Assembly: GCA_023390815.1 (NCBI GenBank)
Contig: JAEWCC010000049.1
Location: 85,741 to 149,740 of the forward strand
Source of the DNA: Bacillota bacterium
GTDB taxonomy: Bacteria > Bacillota > Clostridia > Christensenellales > SZUA-584
DNA: 64,000 bases
Direction: 5' to 3'
Each line of letters starts with the position of its first letter. The first letter of the stretch is position 1. This document shows, piece after piece, positions 18,001-33,000 of this stretch. A program made the position numbers.

Positions 18001-21000
18001 ATATATTGAAAACGAGGACAGGTTTATGGAAAACCACCTGCCCCAAACCCTTGAGCTGCTGATTAACGGTATACTCCGCAGATAGTCTTTCTGCGTTTGG
18101 TTTCCCGAAAGGCGGCACGCCTTCGGACAGCAAAGCGAAAGGAGTAACCCTATGGAGAATCTGCTGTATTTGTCGCCGCAGTGGGCGGCGGAGGTGGAGA
18201 AACGGCTGCGCGAAGAGCTGACGCCGGAGAAGATGAACAACCTTACTTCCTCGATGAACAACCTCTATTTAAACTGCCCCGGAGGAGGGGAGAAATACTT
18301 CTTTGTGAGCTTTAATGACGGGACGGTTTTGAAGGTGGAGACCGGCTCTGGCAAGGGTCCCGCCGCGGAGTTCACCATCACAGGCGACTATGAGACCTTT
18401 GTCTTGATCTCCCGGGCACAGCTGGGCGCGCAAAAAGCGCTGATGGGCGGCAAGCTGAAGCTGCGCGGCAACATGGTGAAAGCCTTAAAACTGGCTTCGC
18501 TGTGCGACCGCATCAACAAGATCATCGCGACCATCCCCACGCGGTTCGAATAGGAGGCATGGCGATGACAAAGGATCCGTATTTTATCGATTTTCCGGCC
18601 CGCATTGCGGCAATCCAGGCCGAGATGAAAAAAGAGGGTATTGATGTATACTTAGGCTCGCGCCTGAGGACGATGAGCTGGACGACCGACGCGTTCTTCC
18701 CGTGGCGCAGCTTTATCGTGATTCCGCCCGAAGGGCTGCCTACCGCGTTTACGTTCGTGATTGACGCCGCGCGGGCTGCGGACGACTCGTGGCTGGATGA
18801 GGATCACGTGCTGGGGTTTGCGCCCATGGGCGGGCAGGACCAGATTTCGCAGATCGCGTATATGATCGAAGAACTTATTCCCGATGGCGGCGTGGTCGGC
18901 GTGGAAGCAGGCATGTCCAACTACTTGCCCGAAGGCAACCTCACCTATTACGAGTACAAGGCATTCGAGGACGCGCTACCAGGGTGCAAGCTTGTCAACG
19001 CGCACCATATCATCGACAAGCTCTCCATCATCAAGGACGAGGGGACCGTCAACCGCTTCCGCGAGGCCAGCCGCATCGTGGATATCGGCCATGCGGCGGT
19101 ATATGATGCCATTAAGAACGGCGGCTGGAAGGGCAAAACCGAAACCGAGATCGCGGGCATTGCGGCCCTTGCGATGCGCAAGGCGGGCAGCGTGTGGGAG
19201 TGGTCCTTTACGGGTGGCAACGAGATTGCCTGCGGGTACCGCACCGGCCTTGCCGGAGGGGCGTGCACGCCCGCAACGACCAAAGAGATTAAGGCGGGTG
19301 AGCCGCTGATGGTGGATATCCACGCGCTCTTCAAACTCGCATGCGGCGATCACAGCCACAACTACCTGATCGTGCCCGTATCCAAGCGGCAGCTTTGGCA
19401 TGCACAGAACTTCACCGACATGGTGGAGCTGACGCTCAAAACCTACCGCGCGGGTATCACGCCCTCGTCGCTGGCGGAGCAGATGATGGCGTTTGCGGAG
19501 GAGCGCGGCTTTGCGGACTTCATGGTGCCCGGCTTCGAGCACGGCATCGGCATGCTGGGCGACGAGTGGCGCATCGGCGGTCACGAGGGGCCGTTCGCCT
19601 ACTGGACCGACCCGGATCACGTCTACAGGGAAGGCGAAGTACTCATCTGCGCGATGCAGTATGCCTGCCCGGCGGAGGACATCGGCTTCCGGTACGAAAA
19701 CCCGATACTGATTCAAAAGGACGGCTGCGAGTGGATGAGCAAATACCCGCTGGCGGTGGAAGTGATCGAGTAAAGCAATGGCACATGTGGGCGCTTTCTG
19801 AGGAGAGCGTCTCAGGTTGTCGATAAAGCTTGTCATGCCTCCCTCAGACGAGCACCCTCCGGGTACATAGGAGGTGGCGCGTAGCGCCGGAGGGAGTGAC
19901 TAGTTTCAAGCTTCTCTCCCCCAGTCACCTATCGGTGACAGCCCCCTCGTCAGAGGGGGCCATTAGGAGGTTTTTTGACACTCTGGCGCTTCCTTAGGGA
20001 GCGCCTTCTGTTTTAAAAGAAGTTGTGAATACATCCCTTGCGATATATAATTTGGTTATAAGCATGTTCATTTCCGAATATAATGGCAGAACAGAAGATG
20101 AATGAGGCGAAGGCCGATTATATGGAGGCGCTTATGGTTTGTAACAACTGCGGACAAAAGGATGAATACAATTCTCAGTATTGCATGAAGTGTGGGCAGC
20201 CATTGCAGGCGAGCGCACCTGCGGGCGAGGCGGGAAAAGCCGATGCGCAGCCCGCGGCTATACGTCCGCCCATCATAATACGGCCAAAACGAAAAAGAGG
20301 CCTTATCATCGCCATCGCGGCCTGCGTGGTGCTGCTGGCGGTGATCATCCTTATCCTGGCGCTTTCCGCAAACCCGGTGGCGGGGCGGTGGTATTCGCAA
20401 AGCGGCAAGGAACTGATACTGCTGCAAAACGGCAAGGGCATGACGATGACCGACGGCGAAGAGAGCCGAATCCGTTTCATGTACGCGATTGGATACACCG
20501 AACCGGGCTATATCGAGGGCGAAATCTACGAAAAAGAGGACGGACCCAGCACATGGTTCTACCTCATCGACGGCAAGCTGGAGTTCAACGGCGAGTACTT
20601 TTACCGCCAAAAGCCGTCGGGAGGAAATGATTGATTTAATATGAGGATAATAAAGCAGCACTTCCGGATTTGGGAGTGCTGTTTGTTTATAATGGCGGAT
20701 GATTTAGTGCCTGACGGCCTTACCCCCTCCTCAGCACGTGCCCCGCGCCTACTAGTGCTTTTTCGTCCGCAACGCCGTCCTTTACCACCTGCATGCCGTT
20801 CACAAATACCGCGTCAATGCCGACCGGGCGTTCGCAGCTATCCCCCTGGGACGCCACATGTTCGGGGTCGAATATCACGATGTCCGCCGCGCTGCCCGCT
20901 TTGAGATAGCCGCGGTTCGCGATGCCAAACCGGTCCGCGACCGCTCCGGTCATCTTGCGTATTGTAGCTTCCATAGAAAGTGCCTGCGTCTCGCGCGACA

Positions 21001-30000: not shown

Positions 30001-33000
30001 ATCACAGTTTAAGCGGGACATTGAAGCGATGGGCAGGCTTTACGAGGGGGAAGCTGATGTTTAACGAGATATACGGCGCGTATTACGATATGATGCGGCG
30101 GATACTGGAGAAGGCGGCGGACGCTCCGGTAACCGTGCGGGACATCGGCGAGATCGTCGACGCCTGCGGCTTTGCCGAAAGCGGCCTGTACTTCACGCCG
30201 GACGCGCTCGCTCAGGACGGCTCGGGCTACAACCTTTTGAAAAAGACCGGAAACGGCTATACTTCCATCCTCAAGAACAAGCCAATTCCGTGCCTCACGC
30301 TGAATCAGAAGCGGTTGATCCGTACGCTGCTGCAGGACCGGAGGATACGGTTATTTTTAGAGGATGAGGAGATCGCCCGCCTCCATGATGCGCTGAAGGA
30401 CATACGGCCTCTCTACAGCATGGACGATATCCTATACACGGAAACCGCTGCCGACAGCGACGATTTTGAAAACGAAGCCTATCGGGCTCGGTTTAAAACG
30501 CTGCTGGAGTCAATCAGGCAGAATGAGGTTCTGCGGATCGTGTATAACTCGTCGCGGGGAGAACGAAAGACTGTCAGGATTGCGCCTTATAAGCTTGAAT
30601 ATGGCGTTCGGGACGACAAGTTCCGGCTGTGCGGCGTCAGCCTGTTCCAAAATCAGCCGTCTCGCTACATCAAGCTCAACGTCGCCCGGATGATTCGAAT
30701 TATACCAGACGGGCCTTGCGCTGCGATAGACTGTAAGCGGTTGATCGAGCAAAAGATGCTCAAAAACCCCATCGCCATCGAAGTTTCCGATTTCCGAAAC
30801 GGCTTTGAGCGAATATTCATCGGGCTCTCTAATTACAAAAGGATTTCGTCGCTGAACGAGGAAACAGGGAAGTGCACGATGCAGATCGATTGCATGGACG
30901 ACGACGTGCAGGAGCTGCTGATATTAATGCTGTCGTTCGGCCCGGCGATCCGTGTGCTGGGTCCGCCCGATTTTAAGCAGAAGTATATTGAGAGAGTGCG
31001 GCGGCAGATAGACATGATAAAAGTCGGAGAATAACTTTCCGGTCTTCAGTGTACTAAGAACCTGTTATGTCATGCTGAACCGAAGGTGAAGCATCTTAAA
31101 ACGGCCTGATCACCAACATTCTCACGTACCCAGCATAGGTGTCGGGCGGTATACGCCCCAGAATAACAGAAATCAAAGGCCGGAAAACAGTTCTCCGGCC
31201 TGAAGAGTGTTAAAAAGGCTCTCTTTACGACCCCCTCTGACGACCACCCCAAAAAGCTATGCTTTTCGGGGACCCCGGCACCGGGGCTGTCACCGACAGA
31301 TGACTGGGGGAGAGAAAATGGCTTAAGACCGGTCACTCCCTCCGTCCGATACGAGATTGGAAATCTCGTATGGGACACCTCCCTCGTCTGAGGGAGGCTT
31401 ATTATCCATCTGAAGGCTGGGCAGGGCTCTCCGGTCGGTCGTCATTCGCTCCTTCCGATCAGCGTGCCCAGCTGCTCGATAATGCCCGCCCCCGGCGAGA
31501 GCGAGATGCTGCCCACCATGCCGCAGATTCGCTCAATGTATTCCAGCTCCTTGAGCCGGTACAGCGTCTGGTTTTCATCCATCAGCTTGGCCGTGTTGAG
31601 CAGGCTCCGCGTGGAGGCCGTCTCTTCGCGCCGCGTGATGACGTTGGCCAGCGCCTGCTTTTCGGCCACCAGCACGGTGTTCAATATGTCGCGCACATCG
31701 CCCGGCAGGATGATGTCCTTGACGCCCGCCTCGATGAACTCCGCGCCGAAGAACGCCTGCTTGCTCTGAACGGCGGACAGGATGATCCGTCCGATCTCGT
31801 GCTTTTCCGCCAGCAGATCGTCGAGCTTGCGAGTAGAGACGTATTCGCGCAGCGCCATCTGCAGCGCATAGTACAGCTGCTCGTTATGATGGTCGAAGTC
31901 CGTAACCGACTTAATGGGATCGGTAATCCTGTACTGGCATACGAAGTTGATGCGCAGCGTCACCTTATCCTGCGAGAGCAGCTCCTGCCCGGATACCTCG
32001 AGCACGCGTGCGCGCAGGTCCACCGTCTTTACCTCGACGGTATGGCGGCCCTTCCAGAAATAGTGGCTGCCCGCCGCAAGCTGCCTTACATACTCGCCGT
32101 CGATCATCAGGATGCCCACCGTTCCCGAGGGCACCGAAAATGCGGAAATATACGCGGCGCCCTCGGCCTTAAAGTAGCCCTTCGAAAATATCGAAAGATC
32201 GATATCGCCCGCCACCATCGGCTCATCAGTATTGACGATCCGAAACGCGTGGTCATAGATTGCCTTGAAATAGGCGTGGGCCCCCGGCGGCAGGATGTCG
32301 ACGAAATTGCCATCCGCGAAGTGCAGCGCGATCTCGTTGTCCCGCACGCGCACGATGTGCAGCATATCCATCAGCGTCCGATCTTCCAGGAAAAGGTTGA
32401 TATCCATGCCCTTGGGCGCGAACTTGACGCGCATGTCCACATTGATCAAGGTATAATGCGACAGCGCGGCATACCGGTACGTGCCTTCCTTCACGGCCTT
32501 CACAAAGCTGCCATTCTTAAACAGCAGCCCCATCTCGTGCTTCTTTACTACATACTTCATAATCTTTCCCCCTTATATCCAAGCACGAACGTGCTTTGTA
32601 CTCGTTTGGCTGCCGTTTGCGTTTTTCACAGGCCCGGCTGCGGGCAGGGAATTGAGCGGTTTCTCTGCCGGGGCGCGATGCTTTGCATCTGGCCCGGGGA
32701 GAGAAACGGCGGTATCCTTCGCTGCGCAGAGCAGCGCGCCGGTTGTCCCGCTGTCGCAAGGGAACCTTGGGGCGCGGAACCGAAAAACCAAACTGCAGCC
32801 ATTGCTTTCAGACATGCCGTGACAGGGCATTTTTTGTGTGGAGTCGAACCACGTCGCAAAGGGCGATTCCAGACTAGATTGCTCTACCCACTGAGCTACG
32901 CAAACCCTTAAGCTTGCTGAAGGATTCGAACCTTCGACACATCCGTTTGCGAAGCGCTCCGGAATACGTAAGGCCAGGGGCCAGACGCACCGCGCAGGAC

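Follow-up and report, generated by a model that had tools for sequence, protein, structure and literature searches.

What is the repeat of about 200 bp that occurs three times in a 64,000-nucleotide stretch of a Bacillota bacterium genome (contig JAEWCC010000049.1; hereafter the window, meaning the whole stretch that we analyzed)? An initial annotation offered two readings, a structured RNA, which it favored, and a mobile element that targets terminators. Our analysis bears out the second reading and not the first: the repeat is very probably a non-autonomous derivative (MITE) of an insertion sequence from the IS1182 family, of the ISCbo5/ISCno1/ISBma2 type. The grounds for this are observed, namely inverted repeats, hairpin duplications, mixed orientation, IS1182-like ends, and the same kind of duplication in autonomous relatives. 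Jumping into terminator hairpins and duplicating them is known behavior of the IS1182 family, and the repeat is not a new RNA gene.

Three copies of the repeat in the window

The three copies (173 to 214 bp; Table 1) lie where the initial annotation had placed them, and the sequence blocks that it described as shared are present: the 30-nt core CTCTCCCCCAGTCAYCTRTCGGTGACAGCC has three exact occurrences in the window compared to 0 expected (100 shuffles), and CCTCCCTCAGACGAG has three compared to 0.08 expected. Gene tables and a terminator scan confirmed that each copy lies 3' of a gene on the same strand, encoding Peptidase_M24 (copy 1), RtcB (copy 2), or Band_7/SPFH (copy 3), and is followed by a hairpin with a T-run, called at 19985-20005 (+), 27195-27171 (-), and 31201-31177 (-), respectively. 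We also recovered the variable hairpin (copy 1, GGCGC-GTA-GCGCC; copy 2, GGCAC-GAA-GTGCC; copy 3, an unrelated stem of greater length) and the insert of approximately 40 nt, which is found in copies 2 and 3 only.

Two features had been overlooked: 16-bp inverted repeats (TIRs) at the ends of the repeat, and a near-copy of each terminator hairpin directly upstream of the repeat as well. What had been described as a different terminator at the end of each copy thus turns out to be the second, downstream part of a target-site duplication (TSD), in which the host terminator stem-loop is duplicated around each copy. The TIRs and TSD define the boundaries of copy 1, whose upstream hairpin aligns with its downstream counterpart and was not called by the terminator scan. 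The two hairpins around copy 2 align with the loop as their sole difference. Around copy 3, an older copy, the upstream hairpin retains 17/25 identity to the downstream one and has lost its fold (-1.7 versus -16.2 kcal/mol).

Table 1. Features of the three repeat copies, in window positions (TIR-L and TIR-R, left and right inverted repeats)
Feature	Position	Strand	Description
Copy 1 upstream TSD	19791-19812	+	Decayed M24-peptidase terminator hairpin GCGCTTTCTGAGGAGAGCGTCT, without T-run; gap of 0 to TIR-L
Copy 1 MITE	19813-19985	+	173 bp; nhmmer model positions 1-184, 155 bits
Copy 1 TIR-L	19813-19828	+	CAGGTTGTCGATAAAG; 15/16 identity to family consensus
Copy 1 left interior module	19838-19896	+	Pyrimidine/purine hairpin CCTCC...GGAGG, mini-hairpin GGCGC-GTA-GCGCC, purine tract GGAGGGAG
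Copy 1 right interior module, inverted	19914-19960	+	CTCTCCCCC, mini-hairpin GTCACC-TATC-GGTGAC, hairpin GCCCCCTC-GTCA-GAGGGGGC
Copy 1 TIR-R	19970-19985	+	GTTTTTTGACACTCTG
Copy 1 downstream TSD	19986-20006	+	Working terminator hairpin GCGCTTCCTTAGGGAGCGCCT, then TTCTGTTTT; hairpin dG -12.8 kcal/mol
Copy 2 upstream TSD	27411-27436	-	GCCGCATTCCTTACGTGATGCGGCTT; 42 nt past rtcB stop codon; gap of 0 to TIR-L
Copy 2 MITE	27197-27410	-	214 bp; nhmmer 155 bits
Copy 2 TIR-L	27395-27410	-	
Copy 2 left module	27328-27386	-	
Copy 2 right module	27224-27306	-	Insert of ~36-40 nt in its hairpin loop
Copy 2 TIR-R	27197-27212	-	
Copy 2 downstream TSD	27170-27194	-	Working rtcB terminator GCCGCATTTTTACGTGATGCGGCTT, then TTTCTT; 2-nt gap to TIR-R
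Copy 3 upstream TSD	31413-31436	-	GACCGGAGAGCCCTGCCCAGCCTT; strongly decayed; 5 nt past SPFH stop codon
Copy 3 MITE	31203-31412	-	nhmmer model positions 22-183, 93 bits
Copy 3 TIR-L	31398-31412	-	Degenerate and shortened
Copy 3 left module	31336-31397	-	Different, long mini-hairpin
Copy 3 right module	31230-31314	-	With insert
Copy 3 TIR-R	31203-31218	-	
Copy 3 downstream TSD	31176-31200	-	Working SPFH terminator GGCCGGAGAACTGTTTTCCGGCCTT, then TGATTTCTG

Ends, hairpin duplications, and orientation across the family

The initial annotation had proposed a search for copies in related genomes, and the core was indeed found at 51 loci, in six related Bacillota MAGs and one Bifidobacterium contig. 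Together with the window, these loci yielded 55 copies with the exact core; assembly breaks fall within copies, as at L053. Across the family, the element measures 164 to 214 bp, which is too small for a transposase gene. The 16-bp family TIRs are CAGGCTGTCGATAAAG ... CTTTTTTGACACTCTG, with left and right pairing at 14 of 16 positions (G.T counted as a pair), and both TIRs were recognized in 20 of the 55 copies.

Hairpin direct repeats of 17 to 31 bp, specific to each locus, abut 19 of the 25 full-length copies in the window and related genomes, and each of the 19 duplications outscores more than 99% of mismatched flank pairs. At six of the 25, no recognizable duplication was found. The duplicated hairpins mostly have a dG of -5 to -22 kcal/mol, whereas random 23-mers average -2.6. 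The two halves of a duplication are identical at some loci (for example, L042, L046, and L013) and have diverged at others. No clean empty site was recovered; the rtcB relatives without the element (82 to 83% identity) have different terminator sequences.

Of the two hairpin copies around an element, the downstream one alone scores as a terminator. Orientation relative to the terminator T-run was sense in approximately seven cases, antisense in eight, and bidirectional in three, and crude gene calls placed the upstream gene on the same strand in 29 cases and on the opposite strand in 13. The constant sense orientation emphasized in the initial annotation thus holds for the three window copies but not for the family; random orientation was a condition that the initial annotation had itself listed as favoring a plain MITE. 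In a contig from another organism (L131), the family TIRs and a 22-bp hairpin duplication surround an unrelated interior, which indicates that ends and interior are independent of each other.

Relationship to the IS1182 family

The consensus TIR-L matches the left end of ISCbo5 at 14/16 positions, and TIR-R matches its right end at 13/16 (17/21 over a longer stretch); among random 16-mers, a fraction of just 1e-4 attains 12/16 or more. ISCbo5 on NC_015418.1 (35706-37318) has the ends CAGGCTGTTGATAAAC ... CTTTTTGAACAATCTG, the copy that we examined has a 30-bp hairpin duplication, and the ISCbo5 ORF scores 472 bits against NF033551, the IS1182 family transposase model (cut-off 270). All five IS1182-family elements that we fetched, ISCbo5 and four relatives, have CAG...CTG termini, and hairpin-long duplications accompany ISCbo5 and three of the four relatives; P0236, P0141, and P0168 have similar ends and hairpin duplications of 14 to 21 bp. 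ISCbo5 has been listed with cag...ctg ends (Skarin et al. 2011, text and Table S3, PMC3098183), and its direct repeats are hairpins at gene ends, 15 to 44 bp long in Table S3 of the same paper (PMC3098183).

The window element invites comparison with the ISCbo5/ISCno1/ISBma2 group of Clostridium botulinum group III and C. novyi-NT, with which it shares CAG...CTG termini, insertion at gene-end hairpins, and direct repeats of variable length that span the whole hairpin (PMC3098183). Unlike ISCbo5, which is 1.6 kb long and carries its own DDE transposase, the element of 173 to 214 bp carries none; its interior is unrelated and made of hairpin modules, and its host belongs to an uncultured Bacillota lineage rather than Clostridium sensu stricto. 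Because the window element lacks the IS1182-type DDE transposase ORF (NF033551; DUF772 and DDE_Tnp_1_6) that ISCbo5 has, we filed it as a derivative of the family and not as an insertion sequence. Its interior showed no derivation from recognizable IS sequence. A tblastn search with three IS1182 transposases detected no homologue in the window or any fetched locus (539 kb in total), and no longer element bearing the MITE TIRs was found either; both results count against the MITE reading.

In its targets, the element resembles IS1272 and TnSha1, members of the IS1182 family in staphylococci, whose choice of terminator-type hairpins depends on structure and not on sequence, and which insert in either orientation (PMC5678879, PMC4923244). 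However, insertion of IS1272 removes or replaces its target hairpin and no duplication results, whereas the MITE duplicates the whole hairpin, which corresponds to "pathway b" in the model of Wan et al. (PMC5678879, PMC4923244). Like bacterial MITEs such as Correia/NEMIS, RUP, and ERIC, the element is short, non-coding, multicopy, and intergenic, with TIRs, a TSD, and a fold into a long hairpin. In typical MITEs, however, the duplication is short and fixed in length (2 to 10 bp); here it is as long as the hairpin and varies in length.

Structured RNA and REP-like alternatives

As a structured RNA, the repeat would be a 3'-UTR module or small RNA held by selection at the RNA level in sense orientation 3' of genes, for example, in mRNA stabilization or regulation. 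The fold is far better than that of shuffled sequences (z = -5.3), but that of the antisense strand is just as good (-81.3 kcal/mol, z = -5.0, compared to -81.0 kcal/mol for the sense strand). Changes on both sides of a pair do occur at a few hairpin positions, in helices 4 and 5 and in the G-C to A-T case that the initial annotation cited as compensatory; across the alignment, however, 17 pairs changed on both sides, no better than the 16 to 22 obtained with partners slid by 1 to 3 columns. Paired cells amount to 86.8% compared to 85.5% in shuffles, and derived G.T mismatches (66) against A.C mismatches (87) give no G.U-type excess. All three window copies lie in sense after a gene, and their co-transcription with it is very probable because the upstream hairpin lacks a T-run, but the wider family is mixed in orientation to terminators and genes, and the nearest rtcB relatives lack the element. 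Rfam 15 returned no hits at the gathering score for the whole window and none at E<=10 for copy 2, and this absence counts against an RNA. The element is identical at 184/184 positions between L026 and L042, orthologous loci that have diverged by approximately 10% in their flanks, and this identity would fit selection on an RNA; yet L131 has the same ends around an unrelated interior, and an RNA gene would leave the TIRs and target duplications unexplained. Overall, we consider a structured RNA family very unlikely. The hairpins are real, yet they do not discriminate between RNA and DNA function. Even less credible is a REP/BIME- or REPIN-like repeat, in which a RAYT (Y1/HUH) transposase working on single-stranded DNA would spread a pair of inverted palindromic units. 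The interior does comprise two related units in inverted orientation, with a weak self-match of the element in reverse, and the same genomes also contain such units as single occurrences or alternating arrays (for example, at L005, L014/L016, and L033). However, REPs and REPINs have neither TIRs of this kind nor the TSD seen here in 19/25 copies, the ends agree with those of a DDE-type IS1182 element, and the annotation and gene tables of the window include no RAYT gene.

Interior modules

In each interior module, a pyrimidine/purine hairpin is combined with a small GC hairpin and a mirror purine tract. This layout resembles that of the BoxC/TMECO motif of Enterobacteria, in which a C-rich tract and its complementary G-rich tract are followed by a second G-rich tract mirroring the first (PMC4666352), and which formed a triplex in vitro (Holder et al. 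2015, PMC4666352). Unlike in BoxC/TMECO, the purine tracts are separated by a GC hairpin of 13 to 20 nt instead of a 3-nt linker, and the pattern CCCTCNCCC N3-6 GGGNGAGGG N3 GGGNGAGGG is not matched, with tracts here of 7 to 8 nt; only the mirror logic is common to both.

An exapted MITE would combine IS1182-type mobility with interior modules that are putative functional cargo held by selection, possibly as an intrastrand triplex/H-DNA motif, a protein-binding site, or a 3'-end RNA stabilizer. The third purine tract is in mirror arrangement 51 times and in direct arrangement 14 times (approximately 0 in shuffles), and the mirror arrangement recurs in several unrelated sequence families, one of them in Bifidobacterium; however, 35 of the 51 mirror counts come from the one core family, for which the loci were chosen, and some families accommodate a direct reading nearly as well as a mirror one. 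The resemblance to the BoxC/TMECO triplex motif and the presence of the 46-nt core in three human faecal phage contigs also point toward cargo. The unusually high conservation of the interior between L026 and L042 is not predicted by plain neutral decay and counts against a plain-MITE account, although it may reflect gene conversion or recent re-insertion at the same hot spot, as reported for ISCbo5 (PMC3098183). L131 shows that the interior is dispensable for transposition. We regard exaptation as an unlikely addition to the MITE reading.

Proposed mechanism and consequence for host transcripts

For the MITE reading that we prefer, we propose that a DDE transposase supplied in trans would bind the 16-bp TIRs. 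The target would be picked by shape rather than sequence, as a palindrome with hairpin- or cruciform-forming potential, which in practice would be the stem of a rho-independent terminator. Cleavage would probably fall at the foot of the cruciform or hairpin, the transposon 3' ends would be joined to both feet of the stem, and gap repair would copy the entire stem-loop, so that the length of the duplication would equal that of the hairpin (17 to 31 bp). The upstream hairpin copy would lose the T-run, while the downstream copy would keep it, allowing termination to continue. As a likely consequence, the host mRNA would now read through approximately 200 nt of hairpin-rich sequence before termination.

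Window copies are bounded by terminal inverted repeats and flanked by paired hairpins

The ~200-bp repeat, carried by an uncultured Bacillota lineage, is an IS1182-type MITE. It is non-autonomous, and its insertion into a terminator hairpin duplicates that hairpin. Much of what the initial annotation described in the three window copies was confirmed. The window contains exactly three occurrences each of the 30-nt core and the CCTCCCTCAGACGAG block, compared to essentially none in shuffled sequences; the variable mini-hairpin is GGCGC-GTA-GCGCC in copy 1 and GGCAC-GAA-GTGCC in copy 2, whereas the stem of copy 3 is longer and unrelated; and the ~40-nt insert is present in copies 2 and 3. 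Every copy is preceded on its own strand by the stop codon of the upstream gene (Peptidase_M24, RtcB, and Band_7/SPFH, respectively), and our terminator scan detected a hairpin plus T-run 3' of each.

A second, slightly altered version of the same terminator hairpin, which had been missed, lies directly upstream of each copy. The flanking pair is GCGCTTTCTGAGGAGAGCGTCT and GCGCTTCCTTAGGGAGCGCCT for copy 1 and GCCGCATTCCTTACGTGATGCGGCTT and GCCGCATTTTTACGTGATGCGGCTT for copy 2; for copy 3 the pair has decayed (17/25 identical), and its upstream member no longer folds. The element termini are imperfect 16-bp inverted repeats (TIRs; left CAGGCTGTCGATAAAG, right CTTTTTTGACACTCTG). Given the hairpin pairs and the TIRs, the "different terminator" with which each copy had been said to end is the downstream half of a target-site duplication (TSD). 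In a short-read assembly of this organism, breaks fall within copies 2 and 3 (L053), as is typical of repeats. The window also holds a vanG-like gene cluster (~39200-45144, +) that begins with a response regulator.

Coordinates of the element, its interior modules, and other features (L-numbers are fetched genomic loci)
Feature	Sequence	Position	Strand	Remarks
Copy 1	Window	19813-19985	+	
Copy 2	Window	27197-27410	-	
Copy 3	Window	31203-31412	-	
Interior modules	Window	19838-19960, 27224-27386, 31230-31397		
Interior modules	L007	2349-2408, near 3181		
Interior modules	L005, L014, L016, L025, L033			
46-nt core, phage match	MT838178.1	4460-4504		
46-nt core, phage match	MT836505.1	9262-9306		
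46-nt core, phage match	MT838749.1	4483-4527		
L131 element	L131	12712-12902	-	16-bp ends identical; flanking genes (fumarate-hydratase-like, MurA) convergent
ISCbo5 plasmid copy	NC_015418.1	35706-37318		Ends CAGGCTGTTGATAAAC and CTTTTTGAACAATCTG
Histidine kinase	Window	39894-41039	+	vanG-like cluster
D-Ala-D-Ala-ligase family gene	Window	41180-42271	+	vanG-like cluster
VanY	Window	42268-43029	+	vanG-like cluster
704-aa Acyl_transf_3 + alanine-racemase fusion resembling VanT	Window	43030-45144	+	Last gene of vanG-like cluster

Target-site duplications across the family

A search of a species-representative genome collection with the core pattern yielded 51 loci. Their sources are six uncultured, related MAGs named "Bacillota bacterium OH_*", JAEXTV, JAEYKW, JAEZNC, JAEYOE, JAEYLC, and JAEYPO, and one Bifidobacterium miconis contig; a profile built from full copies gave 89 matches, diverged and partial ones included. 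Direct repeats of 17 to 31 bp flank 19 of 25 full-length copies, at a distance of no more than 4 nt (mostly 0 nt) from the element ends. As a control, upstream flanks were aligned to downstream flanks taken from other elements; all 19 pairs outscore the 99th percentile of these mismatched pairings. The duplicated repeats fold as hairpins, with dG mostly between -5 and -22 kcal/mol compared to a mean of -2.6 for random 23-mers. The TSD covers the stem-loop and not the T-run, and its length tracks palindrome size.

The two TSD copies are identical at L042, L046, and L013 and diverged at other loci, therefore the insertions differ in age. In the TSD pairs of 16 insertions (window copies 1 and 2 plus 14 loci), differences between copies are enriched in loops (17/99 unpaired compared to 22/265 stem positions, p = 0.02), so the stems of both hairpin copies tend to be kept. 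At one terminator shared by two related MAGs (L006:1277-1461 and L019:3485-3677), the left halves of the elements come from different subfamilies, which suggests independent insertions or replacement. At L048:7155-7406, a 250-bp tandem extra unit ends in a second core copy, and the relative L008 (1278-1286) has a single unit.

A mobile element rather than an RNA family

The initial annotation had offered two readings, a structured RNA module and a small mobile element that targets terminators. The latter stands, and the former showed no RNA-specific signal. Constant sense orientation had been taken to point to selection at the RNA level, and random orientation had been named as favoring a plain MITE; across the family, orientation is mixed. 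Calling orientation by the side of the TSD that carries the T-run or A-run, we found ~7 sense insertions (the three window copies included), ~8 antisense insertions (L003, L006, L011, L018, L024, L041, L045, and L050), and 3 at bidirectional terminators. Crude gene calls placed 29 upstream genes on the element's strand and 13 on the other. The chance that three of three copies share one orientation is 1 in 4.

Folding is equally strong on both strands (sense, -81.0 kcal/mol, z = -5.3; antisense, -81.3 kcal/mol, z = -5.0). With RNAalifold, the full alignment, fragmented by indels, gave only 10 invariant pairs, and we imposed a single-sequence fold instead. On this fold, 86.8% of cells in an alignment of 31 copies are paired, compared to 85.5% after shuffling. 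Compensatory changes do not exceed the control level: 17 pairs changed on both sides, compared to 16 to 22 when partners were slid by 1 to 3 columns. Derived mismatches (consensus-G.T positions left out) comprise 66 G.T and 87 A.C; because G.T is not commoner, mismatches tolerable only in the sense RNA are not favored. The core is invariant among these loci because it was the search pattern. No Rfam match was found for the whole window at the gathering score or for copy 2 at E<=10, and the closest available rtcB relatives (82 to 83% protein identity) have no element after rtcB or in the surrounding 10 to 13 kb. CUGANGA-like strings raised the possibility of a hammerhead ribozyme, which we rejected given that the GAAA element and the helix arrangement are absent and Rfam gave no match.

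Ends resembling those of autonomous IS1182-family elements

ISCbo5 (alias ISBma2-like) is an IS1182-family element; C. botulinum BKT015925 has 17 copies of it, and C. novyi-NT has 27. According to Skarin et al. 2011 (PMC3098183, Table S3), it is located at hairpins at gene ends, and next to its "cag"..."ctg" ends lie direct repeats, each an entire hairpin of 15 to 44 bp. A 30-bp hairpin repeat flanks the plasmid copy that we analyzed, and its ORF contains DUF772 and DDE_Tnp_1_6 domains and scores 472 bits against the NF033551 "IS1182 family transposase" model (cutoff 270). The MITE ends match those of ISCbo5 at 14/16 positions on the left, 13/16 on the right, and 17/21 when the right end is extended; among random 16-mers, a fraction of only 1e-4 attains 12/16 identity or more. 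Three fetched ISCbo5 relatives with 61 to 70% protein identity (P0141, P0168, and P0236, the last from another Bacillota MAG) have CAG(A/G)CTG(C/T)TGACAAA(G/C) ends and hairpin duplications of 14 to 21 bp, one of them directly after a tRNA-like 3' end. In a fourth (P0133, 74% identity), the left end, CAGGCTGTTGATAAAC, is of the ISCbo5 type, and no duplication was readable on the short contig. An autonomous IS1182 copy in L138 has CAGAGTGTATTATTTC (1901-1916) immediately beyond its downstream hairpin duplication; this sequence is similar to the MITE right end in reverse complement, so another element may adjoin the autonomous copy there. IS1272/TnSha1 likewise recognizes the structure of terminator hairpins and inserts in either orientation; the hairpin is deleted or replaced in the process (PMC5678879, PMC4923244), whereas the MITE duplicates it.

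No IS1182 transposase partner was found in 539 kb (the window plus the fetched loci), and BLAST of the element against plasmids gave no match. In viral contigs, the core pattern had 0 matches and the TIR 16-mer had 72, none with an element copy; the match examined (L058) lies in phage tail genes, so we took the remaining ones as chance. ISCbo5 transposase relatives were not confirmed in viral contigs, the first 50 kb of pBtoxis held no reference IS1182 copy, and all-against-all BLAST of the loci returned orthologous synteny only, with no IS. TIR-like pairs 1 to 3 kb apart (window and L038) enclose ordinary genes, and a 785-bp indel between L026 and L042 is an ordinary membrane-protein gene. 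An ISAs1 (H-repeat) origin, prompted by "CAGGG" ends, was rejected because the E. coli yhhI element has ends unlike the TIR. In the literature, we found no paper matching the element sequences, and work on MITEs, terminators, and cruciforms did not describe this element.

The same ends carry an unrelated interior

We scanned a metagenome collection for both TIRs spaced by any 135 to 165 nt and obtained one contig, L131 (ENA ORCX01000275), from a different organism with 54% G+C. Its element is flanked by a 22-bp hairpin duplication (AAATGCCTTTAAAAAAGGCATT), and its interior is completely unrelated to that of the window element. L131 shows that the mobile part is the ends and not the interior, the ends serving as a reusable chassis. 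Small elements with the TIR variants TAGGCTGCTGACAAAG and TACTGCTGATAAAG were also observed in the MAG loci (L027:4214-4589, L001 at ~5600-5700, and L036 at ~2960-3010); they adjoin duplicated CTTCTCC...GGAGAAG hairpins and contain a GTCATTC(C/T)GA...GAGCG box. In the relative L055, a box like it lies after rtcB (3982-4010).

Interior modules

The element is a new example of a known transposon type, and its residual novelty is in the interior, which consists of two related modules in inverted orientation. Each comprises a pyrimidine/purine hairpin, in some cases enclosing an inner hairpin, followed by a small GC hairpin and then a purine tract mirroring the first (GAGGGAGG/GGAGGGAG and GAGGGGG/GGGGGAG, with A sometimes replaced by T). 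Mirror arrangement of the tracts outnumbers direct arrangement 51 to 14 (shuffles, ~0), with 35 of the 51 from the core family and some cases ambiguous. Judged from sequence, this layout is that of a candidate intrastrand purine-motif triplex; it parallels the intrastrand-triplex motif BoxC/TMECO (PMC4666352), but the modules do not match the BoxC/TMECO pattern itself. The small GC hairpin begins with CTGTC, and because it carries the GCTGTC of TIR positions 4 to 9, the module looks like a fossil "target hairpin + IS end" junction. In these genomes, modules are found singly or in alternating BIME-like arrays, and they also occur in Bifidobacterium and three faecal phage contigs. The latter are unannotated human faecal "Bacteriophage sp." contigs with 85 to 89% identity to the 46-nt right-hand core, which was the sole part of the element to match in a BLAST search against phages.

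In two MAGs, the element at the same terminator is 184/184 identical (L026:4192-4375 and L042:1676-1859), while the flanks differ by ~10% (flanking genes are ~88 to 92% identical) and the intergenic flanks also contain indels. This identity may hint at selection on the element, but reinsertion at the same hairpin, as reported for ISCbo5 (PMC3098183), or gene conversion could produce it without selection. We consider it improbable that the hairpin-rich interior is cargo and not junk, that is, a functional DNA or RNA structure kept by selection; if true, an IS1182-type MITE would spread functional structure to gene 3' ends across a bacterial lineage.

Proposed mechanism and probable consequences of insertion

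The IS1182-type MITE has inverted repeats, hairpin-length duplications, no target sequence specificity, insertions in both orientations, and IS1182-like ends. Following "pathway b" of the Wan et al. model, a DDE transposase acting in trans would join the element 3' ends to both feet of an extruded palindrome, and the whole stem-loop would then be copied by gap repair. The family offers many natural cases of structure-directed insertion in which duplication length tracks hairpin length, in support of a joining step at cruciform or hairpin feet. The L131 element means, in addition, that a 16-bp end suffices to carry unrelated cargo.

For annotation, this removes a false lead: the repeats are to be masked as IS1182-type MITEs rather than treated as a new RNA family, and no terminator should be annotated at the hairpin directly upstream of each copy. 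In the terminator scan, this upstream copy, severed from the T-run, was not scored as a terminator, and the downstream copy was; read-through of the element by transcripts of the upstream gene is therefore probable. Seen this way, the "3'-UTR element" of the initial annotation is a consequence and not a cause. Each insertion probably extends the 3' end of an mRNA by ~200 structured nt with termination preserved, which may explain why insertions into terminators are tolerated and why they persist through speciation.
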